From IMG/VR virus record IMGVR_UViG_3300025529_000020, positions 1 to 37,835 of that record: DNA of 37,835 nucleotides, one strand, 5' to 3'. The position numbers and the translations under genes are program-made. Positions 10,847 through 33,393 of the stretch are shown piece after piece (the stretch's first letter is position 1; each line of letters starts with the position of its first letter). The notes beneath the pieces are model-generated. The model was given only the letters and a program-made list of their open reading frames with translations, was not told where the DNA came from and made no database searches. Origin of the DNA: a virus.

Positions 10847-12549
10847 TATCCAAACCCGAACAGAATTCCAGGCTGCTCATCATCGCCACGGTTCCGCTCA
10901 GACAAACGGCCACGCTCAATCGCCATACGACGTGCCTCACGAGCCAACACCATGGCTACCGCGGCATCGACTTTTCGTTCCGACTCCCTCGACTCTTTCC
11001 CAAGGCCTACCCCGAACGCGTTCGGACGTCGCCGAGCGTTCTTGATGTGGCGGATTAGTCGCACGTCGTTGGCAATAGTGAACGTACGTTCCTCGATCGC
11101 GGCCCTCGTCGACTCAGCAGCGCGCGTGAAATCGCGGAGTCGACCACGCATATCGAACGCGACAGAATGTCTCGCGGAAGCGCGAACAGCAAGCCGATCC
11201 CGGTACTGTTCTGCCCACGTGTCCACGTACGATTGCCAATACGCCACGTCGGCGAAAAAGGCGACCACGTCCCAACGTTCGAACGCGGCACGCACCGCCT
11301 CAGTGACCTCATCCGTGGGCACCGACCATCCCTGAGCGTCCGGAGAGTCCGGGCGTTCCCAAATACCCAGTGGCCACACGTGACCGGTCTCAATGTCACA
11401 CGCGATAAGCGCGGTAGCGTCCACCGTTTTAGAACCGTCAAACCCGAGTGCGATCATCGCACCGTCCGGGATTTCCCGGTCCTCAACGATGGCATCCACC
11501 TGGTCCGGACGGACCCATGCATCCGACGCGGCCACGATTTGGTTGAAGAAGAAGCGACGCGCCTCCTCGACAGGCTGCCGCGGATCGTAAACTTCGGCCA
11601 CAATCCGGTCAAAATCAACCCACGTCGAATCCCCGTACGCAACGCGGAGTGCGCGGCGCAAATCCTGCTCGTCCGCAATGTCCACGTCCGCTGGGGCTTC
11701 TCGGCAGTCATACAGATAGGGAACGCGATACCCCGGGTCTTCAGCGGCACGCTGCTGCATGGCTAGGTACATCTCGTATGTGCTCTGCGCCACCGAGTGG
11801 CGGCTAGGATCGTGAGCGTTGGTGATCTCCACCGCCCTGGCACCGCCACCAGCGATTTTGCCTAGGTTTCTCCGCACCGTACGGGCAACATGGTGACCAC
11901 CAGACGATTCAGTCCAGTGGTGCGTTTCCTCAAAAATCGCGAAAGTCGGACGACCACCTTCCAGCGACTGGCTGGAAGACGTCACGGGCTCAATCTTCCC
12001 AGGTCGGCCCGATGCGAACTGGACCATGGTTTTTCCCACGTCCAACCCGTAGTCAGCCACCGCGGGACTCGCCACCACCATGCCGCGGATCATCTGAAAC
12101 GTGTTCGCGGTCTGCGCATAGCTGGTTGCCGCAATCTGAACCCACGGAGAATGGACGCGTTTCCCAATGGGATGTAGCGCATCCCCCGAATGCGGACCCA
12201 CGCACGTGGCGCAGAATTCACCCTGACGAGCCCAGTGAGAAAACCTCACCGGACCCAAAAACTCCGCCAAACACAAAAGTGCGGCAAGCGGGGATTTTCC
12301 CCAGCCTTTCGCACGGCGAAGTGTTGCGCCGTTAAACACAAATCTGCCGCGGTCGTCTACGGCGTAGAGCCACAGCACAAACCTGACCTGCTCTGGCGTA
12401 AACCGCCACTGTGTCCCTGCACGCTCCCCATCAGGCTGCACAATGTAGCGCGTAGCCCACAGCAAAACCCCCCAGCCCAGCGTACAATCCGGAAGATCAT
12501 GAGGCAGGTTGCCGGTCTGTCCCCCAGACGAGCCCATCAACGCTCCCAA
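10846..12549 (-). CDS. Terminase large subunit
   Basis: 567-aa ORF with Walker A-like GWGKSPLAA motif, between terminase small subunit and portal. Confidence 0.8.
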   Translation of the reverse strand: MGALMGSSGGQTGNLPHDLPDCTLGWGVLLWATRYIVQPDGERAGTQWRFTPEQVRFVLWLYAVDDRGRFVFNGATLRRAKGWGKSPLAALLCLAEFLGPVRFSHWARQGEFCATCVGPHSGDALHPIGKRVHSPWVQIAATSYAQTANTFQMIRGMVVASPAVADYGLDVGKTMVQFASGRPGKIEPVTSSSQSLEGGRPTFAIFEETHHWTESSGGHHVARTVRRNLGKIAGGGARAVEITNAHDPSRHSVAQSTYEMYLAMQQRAAEDPGYRVPYLYDCREAPADVDIADEQDLRRALRVAYGDSTWVDFDRIVAEVYDPRQPVEEARRFFFNQIVAASDAWVRPDQVDAIVEDREIPDGAMIALGFDGSKTVDATALIACDIETGHVWPLGIWERPDSPDAQGWSVPTDEVTEAVRAAFERWDVVAFFADVAYWQSYVDTWAEQYRDRLAVRASARHSVAFDMRGRLRDFTRAAESTRAAIEERTFTIANDVRLIRHIKNARRRPNAFGVGLGKESRESERKVDAAVAMVLAREARRMAIERGRLSERNRGDDEQPGILFGFG

Positions 12550-12620
12550 TCGTCCACGCGCGTCCGGGAACGCTGACCGGTGGGCACTTAGCCAGCGACT
12601 AAACCCGCTCGGCGACCATC

Positions 12621-13199
12621 TCAGCCCTCCTGAGCCAGCATTTCCCGGTACTCGGCCAACACCGCAACATTGTCCGGAGATGCTTCCGGACCAGAGTTCG
12701 CGGCAGCGGCAGCAGCGCTCGCACCACCATCCGACACACTCCCAACGCGACCCCGAAGGCGCTCCATGTGGGTACCGCCCAATGCACGCTCCGCGCGGAA
12801 CACGATCTCAAAAATCCGAGCTTTCCGCATCGCGTCCTTTTCCCGATGCATGGCATCCACCAGCGGCAGCAGGCTCTTCAGCACCTCCCAGTCAGAAGGT
12901 TCGAAGTGCGCCACCTGAGCGGAGTGGCACCACGCGGTCCACCACTCCCGGGTCGCGGACAGCCAGCGCTTGGGATTGGGCAGTTCGGGAATTTCTCTCG
13001 CGGAAGTCCCCAGCGGAGCGCCACGAACAGAGTCCGCGGTAGGCTGGGAACTGTCCGGAGCACCGCACGAGGGGCACGCACGGCCGTCCGCATCCCGCAG
13101 AGAACCACAACTCACACACTGTCTACGCCGGACCCCAGTGAAGGGATCCGGGTTGCGTCGTCTACGATTAGGGTTAGGAGGTGGTCCCATACCAGCCAT
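12621..13199 (-). CDS. Putative terminase small subunit (with CxxC...CxxC zinc ribbon)
   Basis: Position between HNH and terminase large subunit; ATG with GGGAGGGA RBS; Arg-rich N-terminus. Confidence 0.5.
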   Translation of the reverse strand: MAGMGPPPNPNRRRRNPDPFTGVRRRQCVSCGSLRDADGRACPSCGAPDSSQPTADSVRGAPLGTSAREIPELPNPKRWLSATREWWTAWCHSAQVAHFEPSDWEVLKSLLPLVDAMHREKDAMRKARIFEIVFRAERALGGTHMERLRGRVGSVSDGGASAAAAAANSGPEASPDNVAVLAEYREMLAQEG

Positions 13200-13382
13200 G
13201 CGATATCCCTCCCTGCCACACCTGACCGAACCCGTGTTCGCGGCCCCGCGCGCACGCGCACGCGCGCGTAGAGGGCGCGTTTGCGCAGGTCAGAGCGCTA
13301 AAGCGTTTTACCAGACCCGTACACGGAGAAAAAAGTGCTATCCGCACGCGCTCTCCGCTCCTCCCGGGTCCGGGGGTACCCC

Positions 13383-13700
13383 CTAGGTCACTTTTTTGTA
13401 ACACCAAAATGGGTGTTGCTCTGCCTCACGAACGCGGCGACGACGTGTCCTCGCTGCTGCTGCAGCACCTTCACGTGAGCTCTTCTTCGCGTGGTGGTAG
13501 CGACACAGTGCCTGCAGGTTGTTCAGCGAGTGGTCATCGCCTGCAATGATGTGGTCTACTTCTGTCGCTACCTCAGTACACCGCGTACCAGTATCGACCC
13601 TGATCCACTCGCAGCGATACCCAGCGCGCTCAAGAACGGTAACGCGAATGCGTCTCCAGTTTCGCGGCAGACGGTCGCCGCGGTTGCTTGTACTCCACAT
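13383..13700 (-). CDS. HNH endonuclease (terminase-associated)
   Basis: CxxC ... EVDHII ... NLQALCRYHH motifs; ATG at 13700 with GGAGGGG RBS (ORF-track start at 13712 is an upstream GTG). Confidence 0.8.
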   Translation of the reverse strand: MWSTSNRGDRLPRNWRRIRVTVLERAGYRCEWIRVDTGTRCTEVATEVDHIIAGDDHSLNNLQALCRYHHAKKSSREGAAAAARTRRRRVREAEQHPFWCYKKVT

Positions 13701-13723
13701 ACACCCCTCCACATGAATGGAGG

Positions 13724-13800
13724 GCTGGGGGATCTTATATGGGGGATCCCTTTCCTACGCGGGGATCCCTATAGGGGGATCCATATCGGGGATGGCGTTT
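13724..13800. repeat. Four to five direct GGGGATC(C) repeats interleaved with CCTACGCGG, in the leader of the HNH/terminase operon
   Basis: GGGGATC at about 13727, 13742, 13761, 13777 and 13788; CCTACGCGG at 13754 and 13802. Confidence 0.6.
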
Positions 13801-13836
13801 CCCTACGCGGCCCTCCTTAGACGGTCACCGCAAAAC

Positions 13837-13879
13837 GCGGAGTACAGCTCCCGGTCTGCCCCAGGGCACTGTACTCCGC
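13837..13879 (-). promoter_or_regulatory. Leader hairpin (11-bp stem GCGGAGTACAG/CTGTACTCCGC) followed by GUUUUG on the minus strand
   Basis: Perfect 11-bp inverted repeat with 21-nt loop between promoter-like motif and HNH gene. Confidence 0.5.
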
Positions 13880-13884
13880 TACAT

Positions 13885-13910
13885 AGTGTTACAGGTCCCG
13901 GTGCGCGCTC
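13885..13910 (-). promoter_or_regulatory. Conserved motif site 1 (GTTACAGGTCC ... GCGCGC), candidate phage promoter/operator
   Basis: One of five copies of the same motif, all in intergenic DNA upstream of minus-strand operons. Confidence 0.5.
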
Positions 13911-13917
13911 TCCTAGA

Positions 13918-14018
13918 GGGTGACGAGTGACGAGTTTTTTCGTAGTTTTAGATTGTTCTATATGTATGTATATAGAGCAATATAAAACTAATGTTTAAAT
14001 CGTCATTCGTCATCACTC
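13918..14018. repeat. AT-rich island A, bounded by inverted repeats GTGACGAGTGACGAG / TCGTCATTCGTCATCAC
   Basis: About 65 bp of AT-rich DNA with nested palindrome CTATAT...ATATAG in an otherwise GC-rich genome, flanked by imperfect 15-bp inverted arms. Confidence 0.6.
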
Positions 14019-14030
14019 ACCCCATCTCCT

Positions 14031-15635
14031 CTACTCCGCGTAGACCGCTCCCTCACTCTCCGCGCTCTCCCCAGCGTCTGCCCATTCGATCCGCAGTCGG
14101 TGCGGACCAACGGTGCGTGGCTGTCCGAGTCTTACCGGGTAGATGATGACCCTGTTGATCGCGAGGTGGAGTAGGTCCCGCACCAGCGCTCGCTGTCCGC
14201 GTTCCACTGCGTCCCGCATCGCATCTGCCAGCGTTTCCGGATCGTCCACGAACCCCAAGTCCAACGTTGCTTGTGACCGCGCGATAGCGGCCTGCAGCTC
14301 TCGGAGTTCCGCGGACAGTGACCGCATCTCCGAGACGAACAGCTCCGGAGCGTCCTCGTAGGCTCCTGCCCTGAACGCGTCGTGGAGTCTTTGACGTACG
14401 GTCTCGATTTCTTGGATCCGTGCGCGCTTCGCCGCGATTTCTTCGGACTCGCTTGGTTGTTGTCGAGCTGTCCACCGCTCAGCGATGATCAGTGCGAGCA
14501 TGTCCGTGGGTTCAAGCGCGGTTATTCGGTTGAGCCACTCGGCGATCACGAGCTGCTCTGCGCGTTCTCTGGTGATCCGCGCTGGTGCGGGACATGTGGC
14601 TATCGCGGACGTGACGGATGCGCACACCTGTTGCACACCGGATGCTGGTGCGGAGCGTCCGCATGTGCCACACACCGCGATCCCGGTCAGGATGTGTTTT
14701 CTGTGTCTCGCAGTGGGGCGTACGATGCGGCGACGTGTAGAAAACGTGGTGATGTTCTTTGTGAGCCTTTCGAGGAGCTGCTCTCGCTCGTCCGGCGTGA
14801 GCACACCTTCCCCGATGCTGACGAGTCGACCTTCCTCGTCACGGTAAGGTTCTACCAGGTGGGATTTGCCGTTGTTTGCGCGGCCCGCTACCTGCAGCCC
14901 TGCGATTGCGGGGTTGGTGATCAGGCTGATGTAGGTCGTGACGTACCAGATGCCTCCACTGGGGCCGCGGATGCCGAGTTCGTTCTGTTCAGCAACCACG
15001 CTACGCGCTGAGCGTCCGCCGAGAATCTGTTCCGCTCCCCAACGCAGGACCTGGGCACGCGTTCGACCGTCTTCGGTCGGTGTGGTGTAGTCGGGACGTA
15101 CCTTCCGTGTTTTCGGATCTAAGAGGAGTCCCCACGGCACGCTTCCCCCGATCCATTCTCCGTCTCGGCGTTGCCGGGCCTTGCTGATGTGGATTCTGTG
15201 GGATAGGTCAACGCTGTACTGTCGAGCACGCTCCGCCTCATCGATGATGTGGCGACGGTCATGCTCGTCCAGCGTGTCGTAGCGGTCCCAGTAGAAGATG
15301 ACCCGGTGCTTGCCCAGCATGGGGAGTACGTCTTCTGCGCCTCGACGAGTAAGGCGGTCCAGCCTGAAAACCCACAGTGCCTCGACTTCTCCGCGTTGTA
15401 GTGCGGCAAGTGCCTTTCGGAACACCGGCCGTTCCCGGTCCGCGTATGCGGAGCCTAATTCTCGCCACACGTGCCGTACTTGGCTGCCTACCTGTGCTGC
15501 CCAGTGCCGGCCGATTTCCTCCTGTTCCCGGATGGAGACTTCGCGTAGGCGGTCGCCTTCGGAGAGAACCCGGGATTTCCTCACGTACAGGTCCACCGTT
15601 TTTGGTGGTGGGAGTAGTTGGGAGTGGGGGAACAC
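14031..15635 (-). CDS. Large serine recombinase (phage integrase)
   Basis: N-terminal resolvase-type catalytic motif VDLYVRKSRVLSEG...RLDRLTRR, central recombinase domain, Cys-rich zinc ribbon (CGTCGR...C...C) and coiled-coil C-terminus; GTG at 15635 with GGAGG RBS. Confidence 0.8.
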   Translation of the reverse strand: MFPHSQLLPPPKTVDLYVRKSRVLSEGDRLREVSIREQEEIGRHWAAQVGSQVRHVWRELGSAYADRERPVFRKALAALQRGEVEALWVFRLDRLTRRGAEDVLPMLGKHRVIFYWDRYDTLDEHDRRHIIDEAERARQYSVDLSHRIHISKARQRRDGEWIGGSVPWGLLLDPKTRKVRPDYTTPTEDGRTRAQVLRWGAEQILGGRSARSVVAEQNELGIRGPSGGIWYVTTYISLITNPAIAGLQVAGRANNGKSHLVEPYRDEEGRLVSIGEGVLTPDEREQLLERLTKNITTFSTRRRIVRPTARHRKHILTGIAVCGTCGRSAPASGVQQVCASVTSAIATCPAPARITRERAEQLVIAEWLNRITALEPTDMLALIIAERWTARQQPSESEEIAAKRARIQEIETVRQRLHDAFRAGAYEDAPELFVSEMRSLSAELRELQAAIARSQATLDLGFVDDPETLADAMRDAVERGQRALVRDLLHLAINRVIIYPVRLGQPRTVGPHRLRIEWADAGESAESEGAVYAE

Positions 15636-15668
15636 GAACGCCTCCAAGTGTGTGCTGATGTGCGTAGG

Positions 15669-15674
15669 AGTATA
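15669..15674 (-). promoter_or_regulatory. -10-like hexamer TATACT upstream of integrase start
   Basis: TATACT about 27 nt upstream of the GGAGG RBS, downstream of a terminator. Confidence 0.35.
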
Positions 15675-15705
15675 GCGACCTTGTGGAGTGTTCGTGTTTG
15701 GGCAT

Positions 15706-15744
15706 GAAAAAAGACCCGTTCGCCGTTGGTTGGTGAACGGGTCT
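15706..15744 (-). terminator. Intrinsic terminator (GACCCGTTC...GAACGGGTC stem followed by TTTTTT)
   Basis: 9-bp GC-rich stem and U6 tract on the minus strand; lies inside the over-extended ORF-track integrase ORF. Confidence 0.7.
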
Positions 15745-15762
15745 TGGTCCGCTGATTGGTGC

Positions 15763-15853
15763 GGGACCATCCCCACATGCGTGGGGAGCAGGTTTTGAGG
15801 TCCGTCTAGAGTAAATCCAGGCCGGGACCATCCCCACATGCGTGGGGAGCAGG
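15763..15853. repeat. Two 30-bp direct repeats GGGACCATCCCCACATGCGTGGGGAGCAGG (15763-15792 and 15824-15853), each with an internal hairpin
   Basis: Exact 30-bp duplication with 61-bp period; each copy contains palindrome CCCCAC-ATGC-GTGGGG. Confidence 0.8.
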
Positions 15854-15922
15854 ATGTTTGGATCCTGATACCCGCAGTTGCGGGAGCACGTGCCCTACTG
15901 TACTGGAGTGTGGGGGCGTTGT

Positions 15923-16537
15923 CTACTCGGAGTCGTCTTCCTGGAGCTCTTCCCGGAGCTCATCCCGGTAGCTCGTCAGGCGTTCCAGGATGTCTTCGTA
16001 GGCCTCGTCTGGCAGCACACCGCTGGGAACGCCCTTCTCGAGGTCTACCACGGTCCTACGTGCCAGCTCTTCCAGCTGTTCATCGGTGGTGTCGGTGTCC
16101 ACCTCGTCCCGAACGTAGGGGAACCAGTCGTCCTCGTCGAGGGGGAAGACTTCGTCTTCCGGGAACCACCGGCCGGGGTCTTCCACCAGCTCCGAGATCT
16201 TTTCCTGAGCGCGGAAACCTTCAGGCAGGAGGTAAGCGCGCCAGTCGTTACCATCCCATTCCTCGTCCCAGTGGTCCAGCATGGTTTCCACCAGCGGCTT
16301 GATCTTCTCCATGGTGGCGTTGGCCACGTCCGCGGTGAGCGGGGGGATCCGGAAACGGCGGACGTATCCGGCCCAAACCGACTTGGGGATAGCTCCCCCG
16401 ATTTCCGGGTCGTAGGTGGCGGAGATGGTGCCCCTCTCAAGGTCTACCTCGATGTAGCAGGGCTGTGGCTGGTGGCCCTGGATGTGGCAGTAGAGCTCAC
16501 CGGGGGTTTCCACCTTGATGATGGTTGCCTTCGCCAT
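15923..16537 (-). CDS. Highly acidic hypothetical protein (204 aa)
   Basis: ORF with Asp/Glu-rich C-terminal two-thirds (DEEWDGNDW, EDEVFPLDEDDWFPYVRDEVDTDTTDEQLEE); first gene of the minus-strand early region, divergent from the Xis-like gene. Confidence 0.5.
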   Translation of the reverse strand: MAKATIIKVETPGELYCHIQGHQPQPCYIEVDLERGTISATYDPEIGGAIPKSVWAGYVRRFRIPPLTADVANATMEKIKPLVETMLDHWDEEWDGNDWRAYLLPEGFRAQEKISELVEDPGRWFPEDEVFPLDEDDWFPYVRDEVDTDTTDEQLEELARRTVVDLEKGVPSGVLPDEAYEDILERLTSYRDELREELQEDDSE

Positions 16538-18065: not shown

Positions 18066-18095
18066 ACATTAGCATGATTGAGCAGTGCTGAGCAA
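18066..18095 (-). promoter_or_regulatory. Sigma-70-like promoter (TTGCTC - 18 nt - TAATGT) for gene 17324..18034
   Basis: Hexamers with 18-nt spacer read on the minus strand; spacer AGCACTGCTCAA resembles the two other promoters. Confidence 0.45.
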
Positions 18096-18149
18096 GTGTT
18101 GTGAGGGAAGTGCCGGAGAATTTGTTCCCCGGCACTTCCTCAAGTGCCG

Positions 18150-18495: not shown

Positions 18496-18524
18496 ACTAT
18501 ACCCCATTGCTCAGTACTGCGCAA
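18496..18524 (-). promoter_or_regulatory. Sigma-70-like promoter (TTGCGC - 17 nt - TATAGT)
   Basis: Minus-strand TTGCGC AGTACTGAGCAATGGGG TATAGT immediately after a terminator and upstream of the RBS/ATG at 18461. Confidence 0.6.
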
Positions 18525-18531
18525 GCCATTG

Positions 18532-19539: not shown

Positions 19540-19580
19540 CCTATTGGGGTTACAGGTCCTGGTCTCCGGTAGCGCGCGGG
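19540..19580 (-). promoter_or_regulatory. Conserved motif site 2 (GTTACAGGTCC ... GCGCGC)
   Basis: GTTACAGGTCC at 19549-19559 and GCGCGC at 19572-19577, between sigma gene stop and next gene start. Confidence 0.5.
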
Positions 19581-19602: not shown

Positions 19603-20556
19603 TTACGCGGCTGCCAGCTCGACTACTACCCGCCTCAGCTTTCTCAGCGCAGCGGCCTTGAGGGAACGTACACGTCCGGGATCGATTCCCATGATGTGCG
19701 CGGTCTCGGCGACACTGAGTTCCGGACCGCCCAGTCCGGTCAGGTGTACCAGTGCCTCACGCTCCCGGGGGGACACGTGATCGAGCAGACGATGCACGAG
19801 GTCCCGAGTTTCCACACTGGCTAGTGCAGCGGCCGAGCGGTGGCACTCCGCCGTGTCCCCGATGGTCTGCGTGGCGCTCTCGTCACACAGTTCCGACACC
19901 GGGGTATCCACGGACACATAATGTAGGGCTTCGTGGATGGCATCGAACTGTGCGTAGGACAGACCACGTGCGGTTTTGTCGTCTAGCTGCTGTGCCACAT
20001 CTAGCCCTTCCCGCTCCCAGCGTTCAATACGGCGGTCCAGGATGGCGGCAGCCATGTCATCTCCGGAGTCCGCCATGTCCTGCAGTTCTCGGCCGGTCAA
20101 CCCCTCACGGTGGGCCCATTCGCGTGCGAGTACCGGGTCGTGTCCACACGCTTCCATGGCTCTCCAGTAGCGGTGCTGTGCGGACGAGGAGATGCGGAAC
20201 GGGGAGCTGGCTACAGCGGCCTCCCTCACAGCGTTCTGGATGTGGCGATACGCCACGGTCATAGGTTCTGCAGAACCATCCGGGTCGTAGTCTCGCAGAA
20301 CCTCCACCAGCGCCATTAGCGCGGCCTGGTAGAGGTCCGCGTACTCCGCACTACGCTGGTAGTTTCTGACCAGGTGGTGGATCTGGTCTTCGTAACGTGC
20401 GGCAAGGATGACAAGCCCTTCGTCTCCGTACGCGGGGAGCTGACGGTTGGGGACGTGATCAAGGCCCAGACGTTCTTCGTAGGCACGTGCGGCGGTGCGG
20501 ACTGTGGCACGGACGATGTGTGCGGGGGATCTGGTGGCGATCAGTTCATCCAACAT
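19603..20556 (-). CDS. Phage-encoded sigma-70 family RNA polymerase sigma factor
   Basis: Region 2-like segment DLYQAALMALVEVLRDYDP and region 4-like HTH LSVAETAHIMGIDPGRVRSLKAAALRKLRR. Confidence 0.75.
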   Translation of the reverse strand: MLDELIATRSPAHIVRATVRTAARAYEERLGLDHVPNRQLPAYGDEGLVILAARYEDQIHHLVRNYQRSAEYADLYQAALMALVEVLRDYDPDGSAEPMTVAYRHIQNAVREAAVASSPFRISSSAQHRYWRAMEACGHDPVLAREWAHREGLTGRELQDMADSGDDMAAAILDRRIERWEREGLDVAQQLDDKTARGLSYAQFDAIHEALHYVSVDTPVSELCDESATQTIGDTAECHRSAAALASVETRDLVHRLLDHVSPREREALVHLTGLGGPELSVAETAHIMGIDPGRVRSLKAAALRKLRRVVVELAAA

Positions 20557-21456: not shown

Positions 21457-23306
21457 CCGTACCCATCTCCCCAGCTAGTGCCGTAGATTTCGGGTTCGGA
21501 TTCGATCTGAACCCCGAAAAACGGCATCCGCATCCTCTCCCCCACTGCGTTGATCACGTCCTGAGCCTCGTGGCGTGGGGCTTCAACCAGGATTTCGTCA
21601 TGGACCACACCGATGACATAGGGCAGTAGTCCATCAGCGTCCAGATCCACTAGCGCTTGCCCTAGGACATCGCGCGCGGTGGATTGGCACAGGTAGGCGA
21701 TCGCCGTGTACGTTTTGTCGCGGTCCAGGCGCAGCAGCCGACCGGACGGGGTACGCACGGTCATCCCTTGCTGCTGTGCCATACGGGTGAGGTAGCGGGA
21801 GAACCGTGCGATTTCCGGCAACGCGCGGTCGTACTTGGTCACCGCTGCCTGAACCTGCCGCAGTGGGAGTCCAGTTTGCCGCGCCAACGTACGCGCTCCA
21901 CCGGCGTAGGCCTTCCCCAACGAGATCGTCTTGCACAATGACCGCTGATCTTTGGGGACTGGCTCGTTCTCAGGGATGTTGAACACCAGCCTTGTGGTGT
22001 AGGAGTGCAGGTCCTGTCCTTGGTTGATCGCCTCGATGAGGCGTTCGGCTCCTGCCAGCGCTACGAGCACTCGCAGTTCTACCTGAGCTAGGTCACTTGC
22101 GGCGATGAGGTGTCCGGGCTCTGCCACGACACAGCGACGCACTCGCCAGTCCGATGACGGTAGCTGCTGCAGTGGCGGGTTGGACATCGACCACCGGCCG
22201 GTGCGAGCACCTAGCGTGTTGATGTCGGGGTGAATCCTGCCACTGGGGTCTACAAGCTGCAGCATGGCGTGACCGTAGCTGGCAGCCCATTTCTGCGCAC
22301 GCTTCGCGCGGAGAACAGCATCGGCAAGCGGGTTGGGTTCACGGGCTCCCACTCTCCGCCACTGTGTGTCCAGGTCCGCCATAGGCAGAAGCACTTCTTT
22401 ACCCACCGCCAACTGTCCCGTGGCGGTTGTCTCAGTCAGCGTTTCCCCCATGGCCTGCAGTGCAGCAGCCACTTGGGCAGTAGCGTGCACAGACGTCACC
22501 CCGTACCGCCTAGCCACCGCAGTGTAATGGGCAGCCTCGTTTTCCAGCTCATCCACCAGCGACTTTGTGTAGTTGAGGTCCAGCCGCATCCCCTTACGGC
22601 GGATAATGGTCCCAATACGGGCAATGCGGTGTTCGTACTCCGCCAATGTTGCCGGGATGGCAGCGTCCTCACACGCGCGAAGCAGGTGAGGCAGCAGCCG
22701 AGTTACCAACACCACGTCCGCACCTGCATACGTGAGGAACGCCGGAGTATCCAGCGGGAGTTGAGCCCAACCACTCTCCCGGGTGAGCCCATGCTCACGA
22801 AACACTGCAGCCAGTTCCCGCTGACCATCAGTAGCATGCGGATCCACATAGTGCGCTGCCAGGTTTTTGAGGGCATGCCCAGTGCCGCCCTCATACTCCC
22901 GACGAGGGTCATACAAGTGCGCGTAAATGCGGGTATCCCGGATACGCGGCCACAGTTCCTCTACCGGAATGCCCAGGTGGCGGTCTATGACCAGCGTGTC
23001 ATAGGACGCATTGTGGATGACCAGCTTCGGCAGCGTGCGGAGCGCGTATCGAGCAGCGTGAGCGAACACCTCCCCGTACTCAACTGGCAACAGCCACGCC
23101 TCTTCCGGAGTGCCGAACTGGATCAGACGTAGCCGGTGCGAGTGTAGGAACACGTTCAAGCCGGTGGTCTCGGTGTCGACTCCCACCGGTGTACCACGTT
23201 GGGTCATGCGGTCAACCCAGTCGCGAAACACGTGGATGTCATCAGGATGGTCGACCACATACTGTGTCCACCTGATGTTCCCCATACGTTCGTGTGTGAT
23301 GCGCAT
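21426..23306 (-). CDS. DNA polymerase I (family A) with 3'-5' exonuclease domain
   Basis: Exo motif VGVDTETTGL, polymerase motifs DLAQVELRVLVALAG, KTISLGKAYAGG, VHDEILVE; ATG at 23306 with AGGAGAGG RBS (ORF-track start lies inside the primase gene). Confidence 0.85.
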   Translation of the reverse strand: MRITHERMGNIRWTQYVVDHPDDIHVFRDWVDRMTQRGTPVGVDTETTGLNVFLHSHRLRLIQFGTPEEAWLLPVEYGEVFAHAARYALRTLPKLVIHNASYDTLVIDRHLGIPVEELWPRIRDTRIYAHLYDPRREYEGGTGHALKNLAAHYVDPHATDGQRELAAVFREHGLTRESGWAQLPLDTPAFLTYAGADVVLVTRLLPHLLRACEDAAIPATLAEYEHRIARIGTIIRRKGMRLDLNYTKSLVDELENEAAHYTAVARRYGVTSVHATAQVAAALQAMGETLTETTATGQLAVGKEVLLPMADLDTQWRRVGAREPNPLADAVLRAKRAQKWAASYGHAMLQLVDPSGRIHPDINTLGARTGRWSMSNPPLQQLPSSDWRVRRCVVAEPGHLIAASDLAQVELRVLVALAGAERLIEAINQGQDLHSYTTRLVFNIPENEPVPKDQRSLCKTISLGKAYAGGARTLARQTGLPLRQVQAAVTKYDRALPEIARFSRYLTRMAQQQGMTVRTPSGRLLRLDRDKTYTAIAYLCQSTARDVLGQALVDLDADGLLPYVIGVVHDEILVEAPRHEAQDVINAVGERMRMPFFGVQIESEPEIYGTSWGDGYGCPDDRKYTA

Positions 23307-23367: not shown

Positions 23368-25830
23368 CTAGCGTACCTGACCGAACACGTCACGGTTCCC
23401 ACTCTGCGGGGATGGGTGATCCGCCGCAGTGGGGGAGTTCGCGACCAGCCGCACTCCGATGAGTGTCTGACCACGCTTGGTTTTGACGCGGTCAATACCG
23501 CGTTCCTCTAGGGCCCTGTAGAACGTTTGTCGTTTCCACCGTTCCCGCGGAGGCAGGTTTTCCGCCTCACACCAGTCCATGTAGGCGTTGAACGCGGCGT
23601 TACCCAAAACGCGGTCCTCAGGGTTGCCGGTCTTCTCGAGAACGCCGGGTAGAAAACCCGACAGGGCATCCGAGATCTCTCGGTACTCCCTGGTCGCTTT
23701 ACGCACCACTCCCGGATCCTGCAGACCATTCCGGTACCACTCCACAGCCCCGCGGACTGCCCAAGCCAGAATACCTTCGGCTTCCGCACGGAGCTTATCG
23801 GTCAGCTCATAGTCGCGTTCGTGTGGCTCAAACTTCCTCCTAAACGGGATCATCTTCACCCGACGCCACAAACCATCGTCCTGACCACGGAACAGGGGCT
23901 TGTGGTTAGTGTCCATCAACAGCAGGAACGTGGGCACGAACTCGAAGAACTCCTGCCGCAGGAAGCGGGCCACCAGCACGTTTCCACCGGTGGCTTGCTT
24001 GAGCACTCCTTCCGCCATGGGCTTGTCACGGTCGCCTTCAGAAGCCCGGACAATTCGAGCGCCGCGTAGGGCAGCCAAGTCGTTGGGGATACCCCCCGAG
24101 CGCTCCTCGAAAGTACTGAACGGTGTAGTGCGGGAAATAGCAGAAAACACAGACGTGATCGTGTCCATGAACACGCTTTTCCCGTTCGCACCTTTACCCC
24201 ACAGCACAGCGAAGCATTGTTCGGCGGTGCTCCCTGTGATCCCGTACCCGATGAGCCGCTGCATGTACGCGGGCAATTCCGGGTTGTACGGGAAAATCTC
24301 CTCCAAGAATTTTTCCCAGCGCGGGCACTTGGCGTCCGGCCGGTAGTCCACGTCCACGTAGCGGGTGATCATGTCCTCACGGCGGTGGGGACGCAGCATT
24401 CCCGTACGCAGATCGATGGTGCCGTTTCGGACAGCCAACAGGTCCGCACGTGCGTCGAAATCGCTAGCGCGGACGCGCACACCAGGGACGCTTTGCAACT
24501 CGCGAATGATGTGGTCAATACTCCTGGTCATGAGGAAGCTTCGAGCTTCCTTGGCCTTCCCTACAAGAGCGAGTGCCGCACCAATGCGGTAAACCTCCTG
24601 TCGCACATGGGACTCGGACGGTACCCAGCAGCGTCCATCCCACACGAAAAAGCCCAGCCCAGGCGCGTAGCGGATACGGTTGTCCGCGAACGCCACCAGT
24701 ACGTGAGCCCGCATAACGTCCGTATCCGACTCTGAGAACCGGTCGTGGTACGCACGGTACAACTCGGCGGCGCGTTCCCCATCCTCACGAGTGACCGCAT
24801 CCAGCCCGGTGCGGCTCAGCGCTTCCTTAGCGTCGATGCGCCGTTCCTCGTCCGGAGTGCGGACAGGGCGGGCGGCGCGTACCGCTTCGTGGAGTTTCCC
24901 CGCGAACCCTGCAGGGTCGCGTTCCCGCCAGTCGGTGAGGTCGTCTCCGGCGTTGGGGATGACCAGGTGCCGAACCTCAACCCCGTGGTTACGGAGCGCG
25001 GTGGAGATAGTCTGAGTGAACCGCTGCCCCGCCTCGTCCGCGTCCCCCGCTACCACGACGAGGGAGTCCTTCAGCGCTTCCGCCAGTTCACGTGCGAGTG
25101 CCTCACTCGACATCGCTGCACCGCGGACCGCCACAGCGTCATAACCTGCAGCGACCGCGGTGAGCGCGTCCCCAGGCCCTTCCGTGATGACCACTACGCC
25201 GTAGGATCCGCCGCCGCGCAAAAATCCGTATCGTTGCCACACCTTCCCCTGGGGGTTGCTCAGGCTCACCCACCGGGCTTGACACTTCCCAGTCAGGTCC
25301 CTGCCCTGCAGGCCGCGCACAGTACCGTGGCGGTCGTAGAGAGGGACCACCAGTCGCGGAAACGCGCGGTACGTGCGGGACAGATACGGCAACGTGAACA
25401 CGTCACCGCCCGGGTCAACGCCCACACCGAGATCCGCGGCCTGGTCAACGGTCAACCCGAACCGCCGCTCCACATACTCGGCGGCTAGACGGGCATCGTC
25501 GGTGTACTGTTCCCGAAGCCGCTTGGACGTAGCGTCCACGTATGCGGCGACCGCGGCGATCTCTGCAGGGCCCACCTGGTCAGGCTGGGTGGTGATGAGC
25601 TGTTCCGGTGCGGTCCACTGAAACAGGTCGCGTTCCTGCATGCCGAGTCGTTTCAGAACGTCCTTGGTCTCGCATCCAGCGCGGCAAGTCATCAGCAGCC
25701 TTCCTTCGTTAGTCACCGCCAGCGCGAGTGACGGCCGCTGGTCATCATGTGCAGGACAGTGCACCACCATGTTGCGGCCCTCGTTGACAACGTGCGGAAA
25801 ACGCTCCAGGAACTTGTTGAAGTCGCGCAT
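23368..25830 (-). CDS. Bifunctional primase / D5-like helicase (zinc-binding, Toprim, P-loop NTPase)
   Basis: HCPAHDD...CRAGC zinc motif, Toprim-like ITEGPGDALT, Walker A GKGANGKS; ATG at 25830 with GAGGGGAAG RBS. Confidence 0.75.
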   Translation of the reverse strand: MRDFNKFLERFPHVVNEGRNMVVHCPAHDDQRPSLALAVTNEGRLLMTCRAGCETKDVLKRLGMQERDLFQWTAPEQLITTQPDQVGPAEIAAVAAYVDATSKRLREQYTDDARLAAEYVERRFGLTVDQAADLGVGVDPGGDVFTLPYLSRTYRAFPRLVVPLYDRHGTVRGLQGRDLTGKCQARWVSLSNPQGKVWQRYGFLRGGGSYGVVVITEGPGDALTAVAAGYDAVAVRGAAMSSEALARELAEALKDSLVVVAGDADEAGQRFTQTISTALRNHGVEVRHLVIPNAGDDLTDWRERDPAGFAGKLHEAVRAARPVRTPDEERRIDAKEALSRTGLDAVTREDGERAAELYRAYHDRFSESDTDVMRAHVLVAFADNRIRYAPGLGFFVWDGRCWVPSESHVRQEVYRIGAALALVGKAKEARSFLMTRSIDHIIRELQSVPGVRVRASDFDARADLLAVRNGTIDLRTGMLRPHRREDMITRYVDVDYRPDAKCPRWEKFLEEIFPYNPELPAYMQRLIGYGITGSTAEQCFAVLWGKGANGKSVFMDTITSVFSAISRTTPFSTFEERSGGIPNDLAALRGARIVRASEGDRDKPMAEGVLKQATGGNVLVARFLRQEFFEFVPTFLLLMDTNHKPLFRGQDDGLWRRVKMIPFRRKFEPHERDYELTDKLRAEAEGILAWAVRGAVEWYRNGLQDPGVVRKATREYREISDALSGFLPGVLEKTGNPEDRVLGNAAFNAYMDWCEAENLPPRERWKRQTFYRALEERGIDRVKTKRGQTLIGVRLVANSPTAADHPSPQSGNRDVFGQVR

Positions 25831-25889
25831 ACTTCCCCTCGCAGTGTGCTTACCTGAGAAACCGGTTCCGCGCTTGCGGTGTAACGGGC

Positions 25890-26267
25890 TTATTGCCGGA
25901 GCTCTTTGACCACGCGCACGAACGTCGCACCGGACATGACCACCAAGCACTCGTGGGGACCGCGACCACGAACTTTCACCGCGGCCACACCGAAAGGCAG
26001 TCCAGCGTTCCGCGCTTCCTGTTCGGCTTGGCGAACGTACGCGGGCAGCTCGTGACGTGCCGTGTTTTTACACTCCACGACAAACGGGACTACCCACAGA
26101 TCCCCTACGTCGTGTATCCCCTGCTGTGCTTGGCGACGTGCGTTCAGTGGGGATGTGGGATCTAGGAACTCGTCTCCATCAGGGGTCACGAGCCCCAGTT
26201 CTCGGTTGAGGTAGCGTGCGAACTCGGTTTCCCACCGAGTCCCACGTCTTTTATTCGGGTTAGCCAC
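25890..26267 (-). CDS. PD-(D/E)xK family nuclease, possible Holliday junction resolvase (VRR-NUC-like)
   Basis: E...D(VGD)...ExK (VVECK) arrangement in a 125-aa protein next to replication genes. Confidence 0.45.
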   Translation of the reverse strand: MANPNKRRGTRWETEFARYLNRELGLVTPDGDEFLDPTSPLNARRQAQQGIHDVGDLWVVPFVVECKNTARHELPAYVRQAEQEARNAGLPFGVAAVKVRGRGPHECLVVMSGATFVRVVKELRQ

Positions 26268-27259: not shown

Positions 27260-27771
27260 CAGCTGTCTCCCCATAGTTCCCTCAGCGCACGTTCGGTGCG
27301 CGCGCGGATCTCTTCACGCTTCTTGTCGGTCTTACGCCGCACTCGGCTCAGCGCGTTCTGGGTACGACGCACCACGGACTTAACGCGGCTACGGCTAAGT
27401 GTCAGCGACTCGCCTTGCGTACGCTCCACAGCGTCCCGCAACGCGCCGAGGAGCCCGGTCAGGTGCGCGCGCATATCCCGCTCCTGATCCAACTCCGCCT
27501 CTAGGAGCTCAGCGCGCTCACGCAAATAGACGATCTCGCGACCATGCTCAGCACAGTCGGCGGAACGTGCGTGCGCTTCCGCGATACTGCGCTGAGCGTG
27601 GTTGGTCACGGCAGCCCATTGGGCTTGCCAGCGCCCCACTTCCTCGAGCGCGCGAGCGTACCGCTCCTCGAGCCGATCCAAATGCTGGAGAATGTGACGT
27701 GGTACATCCGGGACATTGTGGAGCGCTTCCCGGATAGGTGCGAACTCTCTGGCAGACCGCTTTGCGCTCAT
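27259..27771 (-). CDS. Hypothetical coiled-coil protein (170 aa)
   Basis: Arg/Glu-rich helical ORF, translationally coupled to the downstream HTH gene. Confidence 0.45.
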   Translation of the reverse strand: MSAKRSAREFAPIREALHNVPDVPRHILQHLDRLEERYARALEEVGRWQAQWAAVTNHAQRSIAEAHARSADCAEHGREIVYLRERAELLEAELDQERDMRAHLTGLLGALRDAVERTQGESLTLSRSRVKSVVRRTQNALSRVRRKTDKKREEIRARTERALRELWGDS

Positions 27772-28786: not shown

Positions 28787-29614
28787 CTAGGTTCGCCGCT
28801 GTGTGCCAGTCAACAACTGTCCGCCAGTCGCCAACGGGGATCCCAACACTGCCCGTGCCTCCTCACGCTGCCACGTGAGTGCCTCACGGAGCGCCAGAAA
28901 CACCTGATGCATTTCTGCATCCACTCGGACCGGTACCAGTGACCACCGCTCCGGGGTCACGTGGAGCACTGCGCCGCCATCCACACGCGGCATGTCCCGG
29001 GAAGTACCGTCTACGCCGATCAGGCGATCTGCGTACGCGTACGCGGACAACTGCAACGCAACAGTGGGATACACGTCACGGGACGTTTTCCAGTCCACGA
29101 TGATCAGATGCGGAGTCCCTGATCTGTCCGGGGTGGGGGTACGGTCCGGAGCCAGCCAGACACGCAGCAGAGCATCAAAGCTGCCTGCGTACCGAAACCT
29201 GTCCGACCACACCACCTCCTCAGCTGCCACGAGCTCAGGACGTACCGTGTCCAGAAACTCCGCAAAATGATTGCGGTACGGGACGAGGTCGTGCTCCACG
29301 TAACGCGGAGACTCCCCCCTGAGCATGCGCTCAAACAGATCGTGAGCTTTGCTGCCCAGCTCAGCTCGTGCTTGCGTATACCGCCGTGGCGCGGCCTTGA
29401 GCAGGTCTATCGCGGCGGTGGGGTCTGTCTGGACCAGGCCTTGTACCGTATTCCAGTTCTCCACCGCGTACGTTGCCACAGTTTTCGCGGCCCACGGTGG
29501 TAAGAAAGGCTTGTCCAGGACGCTGATGATAGAGGTTACCCCAGGCACTTTGGTGCCAGTGTCGGGGTCCACATACCAGCGCGCTCCCCCACGGGTGAGG
29601 GTTCGGATGGTCAT
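28787..29614 (-). CDS. PD-(D/E)xK (RecB/Cas4-like) exonuclease
   Basis: Motifs D...LIIVDWKTSR and QLSAYAYA (QxxxY); ATG at 29614 with AAAGGAGC RBS. Confidence 0.6.
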   Translation of the reverse strand: MTIRTLTRGGARWYVDPDTGTKVPGVTSIISVLDKPFLPPWAAKTVATYAVENWNTVQGLVQTDPTAAIDLLKAAPRRYTQARAELGSKAHDLFERMLRGESPRYVEHDLVPYRNHFAEFLDTVRPELVAAEEVVWSDRFRYAGSFDALLRVWLAPDRTPTPDRSGTPHLIIVDWKTSRDVYPTVALQLSAYAYADRLIGVDGTSRDMPRVDGGAVLHVTPERWSLVPVRVDAEMHQVFLALREALTWQREEARAVLGSPLATGGQLLTGTQRRT

Positions 29615-29635
29615 ATGTCGCTCCTTTCGCTGTAT

Positions 29636-29672
29636 TCCTAGTTACAGGTCCGCAGCGTGGGGAGCGCGCGTA
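29636..29672 (-). promoter_or_regulatory. Conserved motif site 3 (GTTACAGGTCC ... GGGGAGCGCGCG) with adjacent A5T5 tract
   Basis: First copy of a tandemly duplicated ~117-bp promoter-like unit upstream of the exonuclease gene. Confidence 0.5.
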
Positions 29673-29752
29673 CCGTGGCAGAAAAATTTTTGGTCGACGT
29701 GCTCCGCACCTGGTGAGGGTTCGGATCGCCACGTCGCCCCTTCCGGATCTGT

Positions 29753-29790
29753 CTCTAGTTACAGGTCCGCGGCGGTGGGAGCGCGCGGGT
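29753..29790 (-). promoter_or_regulatory. Conserved motif site 4 (tandem duplicate of site 3)
   Basis: Second copy: GTTACAGGTCC at 29758-29768, GCGCGC at 29781-29786, A4T4 tract at 29798-29808. Confidence 0.5.
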
Positions 29791-29883
29791 CGCGGCAGAA
29801 AATTTTCTGACCGACGTAGCTGCAGCGGGATGGGCACGGAGAGTGAGGGCATGCCCTACGCGGAGTAGAGGAGATGGGGGAGT

Positions 29884-29977
29884 GGTGACGAGTGACGATT
29901 TAGACCTTGTTTTTGTAGTGCTATAGGAGAACCCATAGAACAATGCAAAAACAGGGTCTACATCGTCACTCGTCACC
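29884..29977. repeat. AT-rich island B, bounded by perfect 16-bp inverted repeats GGTGACGAGTGACGAT / ATCGTCACTCGTCACC
   Basis: Perfect 16-bp inverted arms, inner inverted repeat AGACCTTGTTTTTG/CAAAAACAGGGTCT, AT-rich centre. Confidence 0.7.
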
Positions 29978-30048
29978 CCTGGACGAAGAAACCCCGCCAT
30001 CCGTGTCCGGACAGCGGGGCTTCTACGTCGTGTTACTACACCGCGTCG

Positions 30049-30732
30049 CTACCCCAGCGCGGAGCGCAGTACGGCCACGCTTTCTTCAAGCGACACTATC
30101 GCGGCCTGGATCGTTTCCCGCGGCTTACCGGTCAGCGCCACGGTGGCAGACACCGCATCCCTTGCCGCGGTCACGTTCCGTACGTCCTCAGCCAGCTGGC
30201 TCACCGCGCGCACCACATCCTCCGGTGGGCTGTCGGGGTGTACTGTGATGGCCTCTAGTCGACGTAGCGCAGTTTCCGCGCGCTGCCGCTGGCGCTCTCG
30301 GCGTTCCGCCTGCCGTTCTTTCGGCGGTGTCGGGGTGATGCCGTAGTGCGCCAGCGCTTCCGGCGTGTACAGTCCGTTAGCGCGCATGTAGTCGATCCGC
30401 AGCGCTGCCACGTGGTATCTGATCAGCGACTGTAGAGACGCTTCGGAGTCGCTGGGGATGCCGGCTTTCTCATACAGCTGCTGGACTGCTTCCCGGTATC
30501 CCGGGGACGTGCCGCACAGATCTGGCCAACCATCCTTATCCCGGTAGCGTGCCCGCAGATGCAGCACTACCAGCGCTAGGTTGCGTGCTGTTTGTGTCGC
30601 ACGGCCCTGCAGTCTCACATAGTCGCGCACCAGTTTTGCGCCACGGTCGATGAGCTCGTGTACAGGTGCGTCATCCTGGAACACCGTGGCCTCGTCATCT
30701 CGCGGTGGAGTTACCAGCTGTAGTTGTGTCAT
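30049..30732 (-). CDS. Hypothetical protein (227 aa)
   Basis: ATG at 30732; Arg/Glu-rich helical segment ERQAERRERQRQRAE. Confidence 0.45.
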   Translation of the reverse strand: MTQLQLVTPPRDDEATVFQDDAPVHELIDRGAKLVRDYVRLQGRATQTARNLALVVLHLRARYRDKDGWPDLCGTSPGYREAVQQLYEKAGIPSDSEASLQSLIRYHVAALRIDYMRANGLYTPEALAHYGITPTPPKERQAERRERQRQRAETALRRLEAITVHPDSPPEDVVRAVSQLAEDVRNVTAARDAVSATVALTGKPRETIQAAIVSLEESVAVLRSALG

Positions 30733-31464: not shown

Positions 31465-31561
31465 GCTGACATCCCCCATTCCTATGTGTGGAGTACAGTC
31501 TATCGGTTGCGCAGTATGGGGCAACGGCCCCGGGAAGCGTTACCCGGGGCCGCTGTCGACG

Positions 31562-33383: not shown

Positions 33384-33393
33384 CCAATAGGGC

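Follow-up and report, generated by a model that had tools for sequence, protein, structure and literature searches.

The window analyzed here is the whole 37,835-nt stretch of IMG/VR record IMGVR_UViG_3300025529_000020, and it raises the question of why a segment at the 3' end of its serine integrase gene recurs, inverted, between two genes some 15.8 kb away. The original prediction described an inverted repeat of about 43 bp, and proposed recombinase or regulator target sites, or substrates for inversion. Its exact part is as described: the 24-mer at 14020-14043 (plus strand, CCCCATCTCCTCTACTCCGCGTAG) is present again only as its exact reverse complement, at 29856-29879, and two copies of the 24-mer occurred in 0 of 100 dinucleotide-preserving shuffles. 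The match does continue into a neighboring arm, with TCGTCATTCGTCATCAC at site 1 (14001-14017) facing TCGTCACTCGTCACCAC, the reverse complement of 29882-29898. The integrase frame ends GCG GAG TAG at 14039-14031; therefore, the first copy overlaps its last codons and stop, as had been stated. The 43 bp are real, but they are a mere part of a repeat of about 155 nt (13920-14075 versus 29825-29981), and each copy of this repeat is also internally palindromic, a feature absent from the prediction. Two paralogous palindromic cassettes, of about 95 bp each, have the 43-bp match as one edge. A blastn search of INPHARED with positions 13000-16000 gave no match, and Rfam (gathering thresholds) and tRNA scans found nothing.

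Two palindromic cassettes and a copied integrase end

The cassettes and their tails are as follows.

13920-14017, no strand: site 1 cassette, an imperfect palindrome, with left arm GTGACGAGTGACGA at 13920-13933, right arm TCGTCATTCGTCATCAC at about 14000-14017, and a spacer of 66 nt whose 60-nt core is 79% AT
14018-14075, minus strand: site 1 tail, the last ~15 integrase codons, the stop and 13 nt, holding the exact 24-mer 14020-14043
29825-29881, plus strand: site 2 tail, an inverted copy of the integrase 3' end, holding the exact 24-mer 29856-29879
29882-29979, no strand: site 2 cassette, a near-perfect palindrome with 45-nt arms, with GTGACGAGTGACGA at 29885-29898 and TCGTCACTCGTCAC at 29963-29976 around a 64-nt AT-rich spacer

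The core of the cassette presents two tandem GTGACGA heptamers on each side, the sides opposed, with about 64 bp of AT-rich spacer between them. The z-scores for single-stranded DNA folding are -6.3 for site 1 and -10.9 for site 2. The two spacers are the most AT-rich 60-mers of the window (site 1 first, site 2 second), and those of phiC31 rank second and third in that genome. A genome-wide scan recovered both cassettes in the window and in phiC31, together with two unrelated matches in phiC31. The outer span is 91-94 bp in the first eight cassette copies (111 bp at REL site 2, flank included); with 56-121 bp in the prophage set, a constant span was discarded as a geometric constraint. A mobile palindromic element (MITE) does not fit, as distant phages carry the cassettes at the same two syntenic positions, and no flanking duplication is visible at either cassette of the window.

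The cassettes sit exactly on both boundaries of the early region, among the following neighbors.

13383-13712, minus strand: HNH endonuclease, the first gene downstream of site 1, with the small and large terminase subunits next
13880-13916, minus strand: promoter-like motif region near site 1, with GGACCTGTAAC at 13888-13898
14031-15839, minus strand: large serine integrase reading frame (Pfam Resolvase and Recombinase)
23368-25950, minus strand: fused primase-helicase (Toprim, D5_N, SF3 helicase and a C-terminal domain of ~85 aa)
28787-29614, minus strand: gp1-like PD-(D/E)XK exonuclease, the first early gene, 53% identical to phiC31 gp1
29638-29787, minus strand: two tandem phage-type promoter-like units, GCGCGCTCCC..GGACCTGTAAC at 29641 and 29758
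29985-30030, minus strand: intrinsic terminator of the repressor-like gene, distinct from the cassette
30049-30732, minus strand: phiC31 repressor-c-like gene, the upstream neighbor of site 2

The GTG near 15635 is likely the true integrase start, giving 534 aa as in cluster P0001. The GGACCTGTAAC motif at 13888-13898 lies 22 nt downstream of site 1, ahead of the HNH and terminase genes, and by analogy with phiC31 this region is probably the late promoter. The tandem promoter-like units separate site 2 from the first early gene. On the other side of site 2, the terminator forms an RNA hairpin of -38.5 kcal/mol (z -8.4) followed by UUUCUU, and is kept in a close relative of the window.

The copies do bracket the integrase and the early and replication genes, as the prediction noted, but their inverted pairing is a different matter. 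The cassette cores align nearly as well in direct orientation (69% identity) as inverted (73%); therefore, the pair owes its inverted character to the integrase-derived tail alone. The tails align over 53 nt at 83% (14020-14072 versus 29827-29879). Relative to the close relative (88-92% identical), which is without the tail, the site 2 tail is an insertion of about 54 nt, and the site 2 core is nearer to site 1 of that relative (77-79%) than to its site 2 (63%). These alignments show that the whole tail, exact 24-mer included, is sequence of the integrase 3' end, copied along with the palindrome from site 1 to site 2 in inverted orientation, and that this copying took place in the lineage of the window alone. 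Ectopic conversion between two palindromic paralogues would yield such an inverted tail copy at site 2. The exact 24-mer is the trace of a sequence exchange between paralogous palindromes and no conserved functional motif.

A conserved pair in phiC31-like phages

phiC31 and related phages serve as models among Streptomyces phages, and integrases in wide use come from them. Leaving aside the 1990s phiC31 papers, we know of no reported replication origin for phiC31-like phages, nor of any account of what distinguishes the phiC31 late promoter from the early ones. The conserved pair of iteron and AT-rich cassettes is a testable candidate for the origin or for this distinction. The window is syntenic with phiC31 (identities of 53% for gp1, 45% for gp3, 52% for the primase-helicase and 45% for PolA). 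phiC31, phiBT1, TG1, Lilbooboo and Shaeky each have homologous cassettes at the two equivalent places, one ahead of the gp1 exonuclease and one separating int from the late operon, with the pair direct-oriented; the close relative has both cassettes as well. Those of phiC31 lie at 21667-21757 and 40437-40540, within unannotated repeats of about 100 bp that are 76% identical (21649-21768 versus 40428-40547), and the late promoter annotated in X91149 is 18 nt downstream of the int/late-operon cassette. One copy thus stands between the lysis/repressor end and the first early promoter (gp1), and the other comes after int and ahead of the late-operon promoter (HNH, terminase).

Nine phages (phiC31, phiBT1, TG1, Lilbooboo, Vash, Samora, Euratis, Shawty and Shaeky) share with the window the two syntenic positions, the AT-rich center, the inverted GTGAYGA/GTGACG arms of tandem 7-8-nt units and the phage-type promoter downstream of each copy. 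They differ from it in that their pair is direct, their spacer is without self-complementarity and there is no duplicated integrase-derived tail. We define an operational family, the paired promoter-upstream cassettes of phiC31-like phages, by two copies per genome (upstream of gp1; int/late operon), inverted tandem RTG-NN-G units and an AT-rich center; the window belongs to it. Inverted arms and an AT-rich spacer are found upstream of gp1 in most of 52 related prophages, and tandem 7-8-nt arm units that fit RTG-NN-G in 30 of the 52. When we sought a complete phage lacking the gp1-side cassette, the candidates Heather, Rowa and Samy each turned out to have one. The comparison shows the cassettes to be a conserved cis-element pair of phiC31-like temperate actinophages. 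None of the GenBank records examined annotates a feature on them, the Samy paper leaves the element unmentioned, and our search of the literature other than the old phiC31 papers returned no description of it. At least 119 metagenome contigs devoid of phiC31-like genes also bear the exact arm pattern, in long hairpins built of heptamer arrays, most of them at the 3' ends of genes; these contigs have neither a common neighbor gene family nor phiC31-like proteins.

Replication, transcription or structure

In their layout, the cassettes look most like loading sites for a replication helicase, and not like integrase or inversion sites. The best explanation, which we hold tentatively and by analogy with the SaPI origin, is that these paired iteron and AT-rich palindromic cassettes are sites or origins for the primase-helicase of the phage. 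The heptamers would be iterons bound by the C-terminal domain of this fused protein; two oppositely oriented helicase assemblies would load on the arms and then open the AT-rich spacer; and the cassettes would be replication origins, or an origin and an auxiliary site, as in SaPI ori and P4 ori/crr. In each cassette, an AT-rich region is flanked on either side by at least two short iterons, the two sides opposed, which is the SaPI/P4-type arrangement (as defined in PMC9371898). The phage protein is a helicase of the Rep/PriRep type (Toprim, D5_N and DUF5906; phrog_6088 DNA primase), whose closest solved relative is SaPI5 PriRep5, 7OLA/7OM0 (best PDB match 7OLA, E 2.3e-7). The model of its C-terminal domain has a winged-helix-like order of helix-helix-helix-strand-wing-strand (pLDDT 80-86); in Foldseek, the best E of 0.13 is not significant, and the weak matches are mostly winged-helix domains and the C-terminus of ASFV PrimPol.

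In favor of the origin reading, the arms are unrelated at loci with a divergent helicase C-terminal domain or without such a helicase within 10 kb. Between loci with TA-type and AC-type arms, only one of 343 conserved helicase columns discriminates, a Thr in the predicted wing that changes to V, N or S in the three TA-type loci; other protein families have equal or higher fractions of such columns, and no family stands out in covariation with arm type. Shaeky and L051 have arms and C-terminal-domain features in common, but they are simply close relatives. Several observations count against the origin reading. About one-third of the related prophages have the primase-helicase, yet no cassette within 10 kb of gp1, and Dismas, a lytic Microbacterium phage, lacks the cassette although its primase-helicase is homologous. 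The cassettes lie some 4-10 kb from the helicase gene, at about 4 kb and 9 kb, and not immediately downstream of it as the SaPI origin does from rep. In every case a terminator or stop codon lies on one side of them and a promoter on the other, as would suit a transcriptional role. The metagenome contigs with the arm pattern but no phiC31-like genes also count against the origin reading.

A regulatory role upstream of promoters is a serious rival to the origin reading, albeit one that we consider somewhat unlikely. A phage or host DNA-binding protein would occupy the four heptamers, with the spacer bent or wrapped, and the first early and the late promoters would be activated, repressed or insulated by it. 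The proposal of regulator target sites in the original prediction is viable to this extent, given the resemblance of the cassettes to protein-binding sites, the binding itself being putative. Both promoters stand directly behind genes expected to be on in the lysogen (repressor and int), and the position of the cassette is invariant, behind a terminator or stop codon and 0-120 nt before the phage-type promoter (the window, phiC31, L010 and the prophages). Of about ten phiC31 promoters of this type, just these two have a cassette. The arm sequences differ among phages, as operator specificities do, and the prophages L031 and L035 have no separate promoter motif between cassette and gp1. Against this, the promoter works without a cassette in about one-third of the relatives, the promoter type switches between phages while the arms are unchanged, and one module on both an early and a late promoter has no obvious timing logic. 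A repressor operator was rejected as the main idea: the phiC31 repressor operators (CIRs) differ in sequence from the arms, and the repressor-like gene does not track arm type, as L028 has arms identical to those of the window and a repressor of a different family. A sigma-70 promoter inside the spacer was likewise rejected, for the copies have no consistent hexamers or spacing and the scans found sigma-70-type promoters in the spacers at chance level.

A structural hairpin or cruciform without a dedicated sequence-specific binder strikes us as improbable. The palindrome would act in RNA as a stop, a processing site or a stabilizer at the ends of the int and repressor transcripts, or in DNA as a cruciform. 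The (GTGACGA)n hairpin arrays that many environmental bacteria carry at the 3' ends of genes may belong to the same class. Strong self-complementarity is indeed kept while the spacer sequences differ entirely between phages (L027 and Samy, for example), and both cassette copies are downstream of genes. The metagenomic arrays of the same heptamer are intergenic as well, mostly in convergent or tandem gene arrangements and divergent in only ~2 of 80. However, a stem needs no tandem 7-8-nt units to form, and in the phiC31-type copies pairing is limited to arms of about 15 nt with the spacer unpaired. The spacers of the metagenomic arrays are not AT-rich. Canonical terminators already stand ahead of the cassettes, and the palindromes have no U-tract; terminator scans, which look for a GC-rich stem and a U-tract, found no intrinsic terminator inside them.

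We give still less credence to a combined possibility, by which the cassettes would be helicase-loading sites before the first early and the late promoters, and replication initiation or occupancy by the primase-helicase would switch transcription. If true, such replication-linked switching could explain how one promoter sequence serves both early and late genes in phiC31-like phages, and a bipartite origin doubling as a replication-coupled transcriptional timer would be a regulatory arrangement new to temperate actinophages.

That the serine recombinase targets the copies, as attP or a pseudo-site, or that they are substrates for inversion of the 15.8-kb segment, is very improbable and already largely refuted, despite the abutment of one copy on int and the tail that makes the pair inverted. 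In the integrated Streptacidiphilus prophage L008, the cassette (12430-12515) is whole between int and HNH, and the junction with host DNA is at the 5' side of int, upstream of the gene; the attP of phiBT1 is also annotated upstream of int. On these two grounds attP identity was rejected. phiC31 shares the arms, yet its integrase matches over just 124 residues at 26% identity; therefore, the arms do not follow the integrase. Nor are serine integrases known to act on a pair of identical sites, which also counts against the recombinase reading. As for inversion, the pair is direct in the five phages named above, the tail is missing from the 88-92% identical relative, and all genes between the sites share the strand of the genes elsewhere in the genome. 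At contig level, no recombinant junction (inversion would give CATCACTCACCCCATCTCCTCTACTCCGCGTAGGGCATGCC) was found in IMG/VR or the JGI metagenomes; the latter gave no hit at all, and in IMG/VR the two other contigs that bear the 24-mer are both parental in their site 1 arrangement. An annotation of the repeat as attP or as an inversion site would be wrong for the window.

Relation to known phage and island elements

Like the cassette, the attP of a serine integrase has imperfect dyad symmetry and adjoins int. It is a unique site of about 50 bp, upstream of int in this phage group and split by integration, whereas the cassette spans about 95 bp, is present twice per genome, lies downstream of int and is intact in a prophage. 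The CIRs of phiC31 resemble the cassettes as conserved inverted repeats near phage promoters, but they are single palindromes of 17-18 bp (CCTACTCACGTGAGTAGG) at about a dozen loci. Their likely equivalent in the window is TTGCTCAGTACTGCGCAA, in four copies, and neither it nor the CIR matches the cassette.

In the satellite phage P4, ori and crr are separate cis sites, kilobases apart, with the same short iterons. These are octamers (TGTTCACC), and the two sites do not both form a palindrome around an AT-rich spacer. The P4 alpha protein is a fused primase-helicase whose C-terminal winged-helix domain binds the iterons of ori and crr. In layout, the window is like P4 in having two separate cis sites with short repeats and a fused primase-helicase.

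The SaPI origins (Ubeda et al. 2007, 2012, as summarized in PMC9371898) consist of an AT-rich region between two sets of at least two short iterons, the sets opposed and bound by the C-terminal winged helix of Rep. The SaPI origin is single and immediately downstream of rep, and its iterons are of 5-6 nt, whereas the window has two copies, each just upstream of a promoter, with candidate iterons of 7-8 nt. What the two systems share is the opposed iterons around an AT-rich center and an SF3-type helicase of their own, which is fused to a primase in SaPI5 and which in SaPI is the initiator.

Anatomy of the repeat pair

The 24-mer at 14020-14043 (+) is the exact reverse complement of 29856-29879, where its only second copy lies; none of 100 shuffles reproduced it. 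The match extends beyond the 24-mer into the arm TCGTCAYTCGTCAYCAC, and copy 1 overlaps the end of the integrase gene (int; ORF 14031-15839, minus strand, Resolvase and Recombinase domains), whose terminal GCG GAG TAG falls within it. The original prediction had thus described the pair correctly. The full repeat is longer than it proposed (approximately 155 nt, 13920-14075 versus 29825-29981), and both copies are individually imperfect palindromes of approximately 95 bp, organized as follows.

Cassettes at sites 1 and 2
13920-13933: site 1 left arm, GTGACGAGTGACGA
Between the arms: site 1 spacer, 66 nt, AT-rich
14000-14017: site 1 right arm, TCGTCATTCGTCATCAC
29885-29898: site 2 left arm, GTGACGAGTGACGA
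Between the arms: site 2 spacer, 64 nt
29963-29976: site 2 right arm, TCGTCACTCGTCAC

From these sequences it follows that every arm consists of two tandem heptamers and that the arms are oppositely directed. By AT content the spacers are the top two of all 60-mers in the window (78% and 63%, versus a mean of 38%), and single-strand folding of the sites is much better than that of shuffled controls (z of -6.3 and -10.9). Each palindrome is bordered on one side by a tail, CCCCATCTCCTCTACTCCGCGTAG ... CCCTCACTCTCCG, which at site 1 is the int stop with the last 15 or so codons and at site 2 is inverted and non-coding.

Genome context

The window is phage-like, with approximately 61% GC and nearly all genes on the minus strand. 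Its exact 127-bp terminal overlap (1-127 = 37709-37835) points to a 37,708-bp genome that is circular or was assembled as a circle.

Gene order on the minus strand
Start: lysin, membrane protein, SprT-like gene, phiC31-repressor-c-like gene
30732-30049, minus: the phiC31-repressor-c-like gene, then an intrinsic terminator (RNA hairpin of -38.5 kcal/mol and U-tract)
After the terminator: site 2, then two tandem promoter-like units, GCGCGCTCCC..GGACCTGTAAC
Downstream of these units: gp1-like exonuclease, Gp3-like RDF, RusA-like resolvase, primase-helicase, PolA
After PolA: EndoVII, sigma factor, further genes, int last
After int: site 1, then the same promoter-like motif as before gp1
Downstream of this late motif: HNH, TerS, TerL, structural genes

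Five exact copies of GGACCTGTAAC (13888-13898, 19549-19559, 29641-29651, 29758-29768 and 34005-34015; chance expectation 0.67) occur on one strand only, each with a GCGCGC(T)CCC box before it and a minus-strand gene downstream; they are probably the counterparts of the phiC31 phage-type promoters. Like Shaeky, the phage has a sigma-70-family gene of its own (19603-20556, minus). The early promoter unit is doubled as a tandem repeat of approximately 117 nt (29580-29817), also in the close relative, and in both units an A/T palindrome (CAGAAAATTTTCTG or CAAAAATTTTTCTG) precedes the promoter-like motif. An imperfect palindrome of 18 bp, TTGCTCAGTACTGCGCAA, occurs four times (approximately 18075-18097, 18504-18529, 31500-31527 and 33364-33390) and is likely the window's counterpart of CIR, the phiC31 repressor operators.

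A hairpin with the conserved loop GTGCCCYGGGGCAGACCGGGAGC lies in the presumed late leader (13838-13880, minus; L003 11945-11990; L006 6925-6975), and the relative and L006 both carry compensatory changes in its stem. Four to five GGATCCCC repeats (13735-13800) separate it from HNH, and both features may serve in packaging or regulation. An exact direct repeat of 31 nt, whose two copies (15762-15792 and 15823-15853) each contain CCCCACGCATGTGGGG, lies upstream of int; a terminator comes next, and then the GTG near 15635 at which int probably starts. The DUF2637 membrane-protein ORF (31562-32854, minus) is dense in GGAACG-type short tandem repeats, especially at 31790-32010 and 32430-32530, and this low-complexity region varies among relatives.

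Conservation of the cassettes and origin of the 24-mer

Three IMG/VR loci on two contigs are fragments 100% identical to the window phage. One further contig, the close relative (88-92% identical), is palindromic at both sites; heptamers recur there at 8-nt spacing (GTGACGAAGTGACGA), and the spacers keep their self-complementarity despite a sequence unlike that of the window's spacers. The site 2 tail is missing there, the window having an insertion of approximately 54 nt. The window's site 2 core is closer to this relative's site 1 (77-79% identity) than to its site 2 (63%). The site 2 tail copies the window's int 3' end except in a single 6-nt block, which gives rise to GGGCATGCCC. Most simply, the exact 24-mer would stem from ectopic conversion, in which a site-1-type copy with its int flank replaced site 2 in inverted orientation; the ability of palindromic paralogues to pair either way round makes this possible. 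The int 3'-end duplication is lineage-specific, laid over a conserved cassette pair. A third relative, contig L027 (JAFIDK010000020.1), with gp1 92% identical to the window's, differs completely in its site 2 palindrome and has neither the repressor-like nor the SprT-like gene. This 5.3-kb contig of an 'Algoriphagus aestuarii' (Bacteroidota) assembly is approximately 80% identical in DNA to the actinophage-like window and is probably a contaminant.

The window is syntenic with Streptomyces phage phiC31 (identities: gp1 53%, gp3 45%, gp9a primase-helicase 52%, PolA 45%), the integrases sharing merely 26% over a 124-residue match. Homologous elements of approximately 100 bp lie in phiC31 upstream of gp1 (21667-21757) and downstream of int (40437-40540), with arms GTGATGAAGTGACG / CACTTCATCAC..CGTCAC. 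phiBT1, TG1, Lilbooboo and Shaeky have the pair as well, BLAST matches add Vash, Samora, Euratis and Shawty, and its orientation is direct in all other phages whose sequence was inspected. No annotated feature underlies the cassette match in the GenBank records examined. Querying genomes with a gp1 profile gave 52 prophage loci in Streptomyces, Kitasatospora, Amycolatopsis and other actinobacteria, the majority with inverted arms around an AT-rich spacer at 130-220 nt before gp1. Tandem 7-8-nt arm units fit RTG-NN-G in 30 loci (NN being AC in 25, TA in 3, TC in 1 and GT in 1). The repeat is a member of a conserved cis-cassette pair in phiC31-like phages.

In the Streptacidiphilus prophage L008, GGCT(G/T)ACGACTC(G/A)CTAG occurs twice upstream of HNH, at 12545-12595; one copy contains ACGACTCACTA, which we take to match the T7 promoter core. 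The phiC31 promoter family GGTTGCCGACTCCCTTAC (e.g. 27580-27607) is loosely similar to these copies.

Possible functions

To our knowledge, the replication origin of phiC31-like phages is unmapped, and the cassette family is a testable candidate for it or for early/late operon control. We tentatively consider the cassettes origin-like, as candidate replication sites of the phage primase-helicase. In favor, the 860-residue helicase (Toprim, D5_N and SF3) has as its best solved relative the SaPI5 primase-helicase PriRep5 (7OLA/7OM0, E 2.3e-7); the approximately 85 residues past the aligned core are modelled as a domain with winged-helix-like element order (pLDDT 80-86); and unrelated arms occur in prophage clades whose C-terminal domain is very divergent or that lack such a helicase within 10 kb. 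Foldseek with this domain found nothing significant (best E 0.13), the weak matches being mostly winged-helix domains. One Thr in the predicted wing distinguishes the three TA-type from AC-type loci, such columns being equally many in other protein families. Against an origin, the gp1-side copy is absent in one-third of relatives, and the cassette is missing from Dismas, a lytic phage that has the helicase. The origin reading therefore stays tentative, and the three alternatives rank below it.

That the cassette is a regulatory or insulator module upstream of promoters is somewhat less likely, though a serious alternative. The phiC31 'late lytic' promoter (GenBank X91149 annotation) follows the second element at a distance of 18 nt and belongs to the GGTTGCCGAC..CTT family of approximately 10 copies, only two of which, gp1 and late, have a cassette upstream. 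In the approximately one-third of prophage loci without a gp1-side element, the promoter directly follows the terminator. A terminator or sigma-70-type promoter was rejected on negative consensus scans, and a repressor operator set because the phiC31 CIR sequence differs and L028 has the window's arms yet another repressor family.

A hairpin acting independently of any binder is unlikely, and is kept alive mainly by heptamer arrays in metagenomes. Searching JGI metagenomes for GTGACGAGTGACGA, 50-80 nt and TCGTCANTCGTCA matched at least 119 contigs; phiC31-like proteins were found on none of the 80 examined. Their arms are longer, inverted arrays (GTGACGA)n ... (TCGTCAC)n with n up to approximately 10, around spacers that are not AT-rich, and are intergenic, chiefly at gene 3' ends. 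Such arrays look like members of a widespread hairpin family, of which we know no description; its likeness to the cassettes may be due to a host factor common to both, to a general hairpin-forming element or to coincidence.

The proposal that the repeats are recombinase sites or substrates for inversion is not supported and is highly improbable. An attP is contradicted by prophage L008, where host genes adjoin the int 5' side and the cassette lies whole between int and HNH, and by the annotated phiBT1 attP upstream of int; by synteny the window's attP should also lie upstream of int. An integrase-specific site conflicts with arms common to phages whose integrases are 26% identical, and there is no sign of an invertible segment: the pairs of other phages are direct, and the window's palindromic cores align similarly direct versus inverted (69% versus 73%). 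No inversion isomer appeared in the two other contigs carrying the 24-mer, both parental, and JGI metagenomes held no copy of it.

The origin reading has a known system for comparison. SaPI origins consist of short tandem repeats, oppositely directed, flanking an AT-rich region; a self-loading Rep helicase, primase-fused in SaPI5, recognizes these iterons through a winged helix at its C-terminus (PMC9371898). The cassettes, unlike SaPI ori, are not adjacent to the helicase gene, which counts against this reading. Their architecture fits the published SaPI definition.
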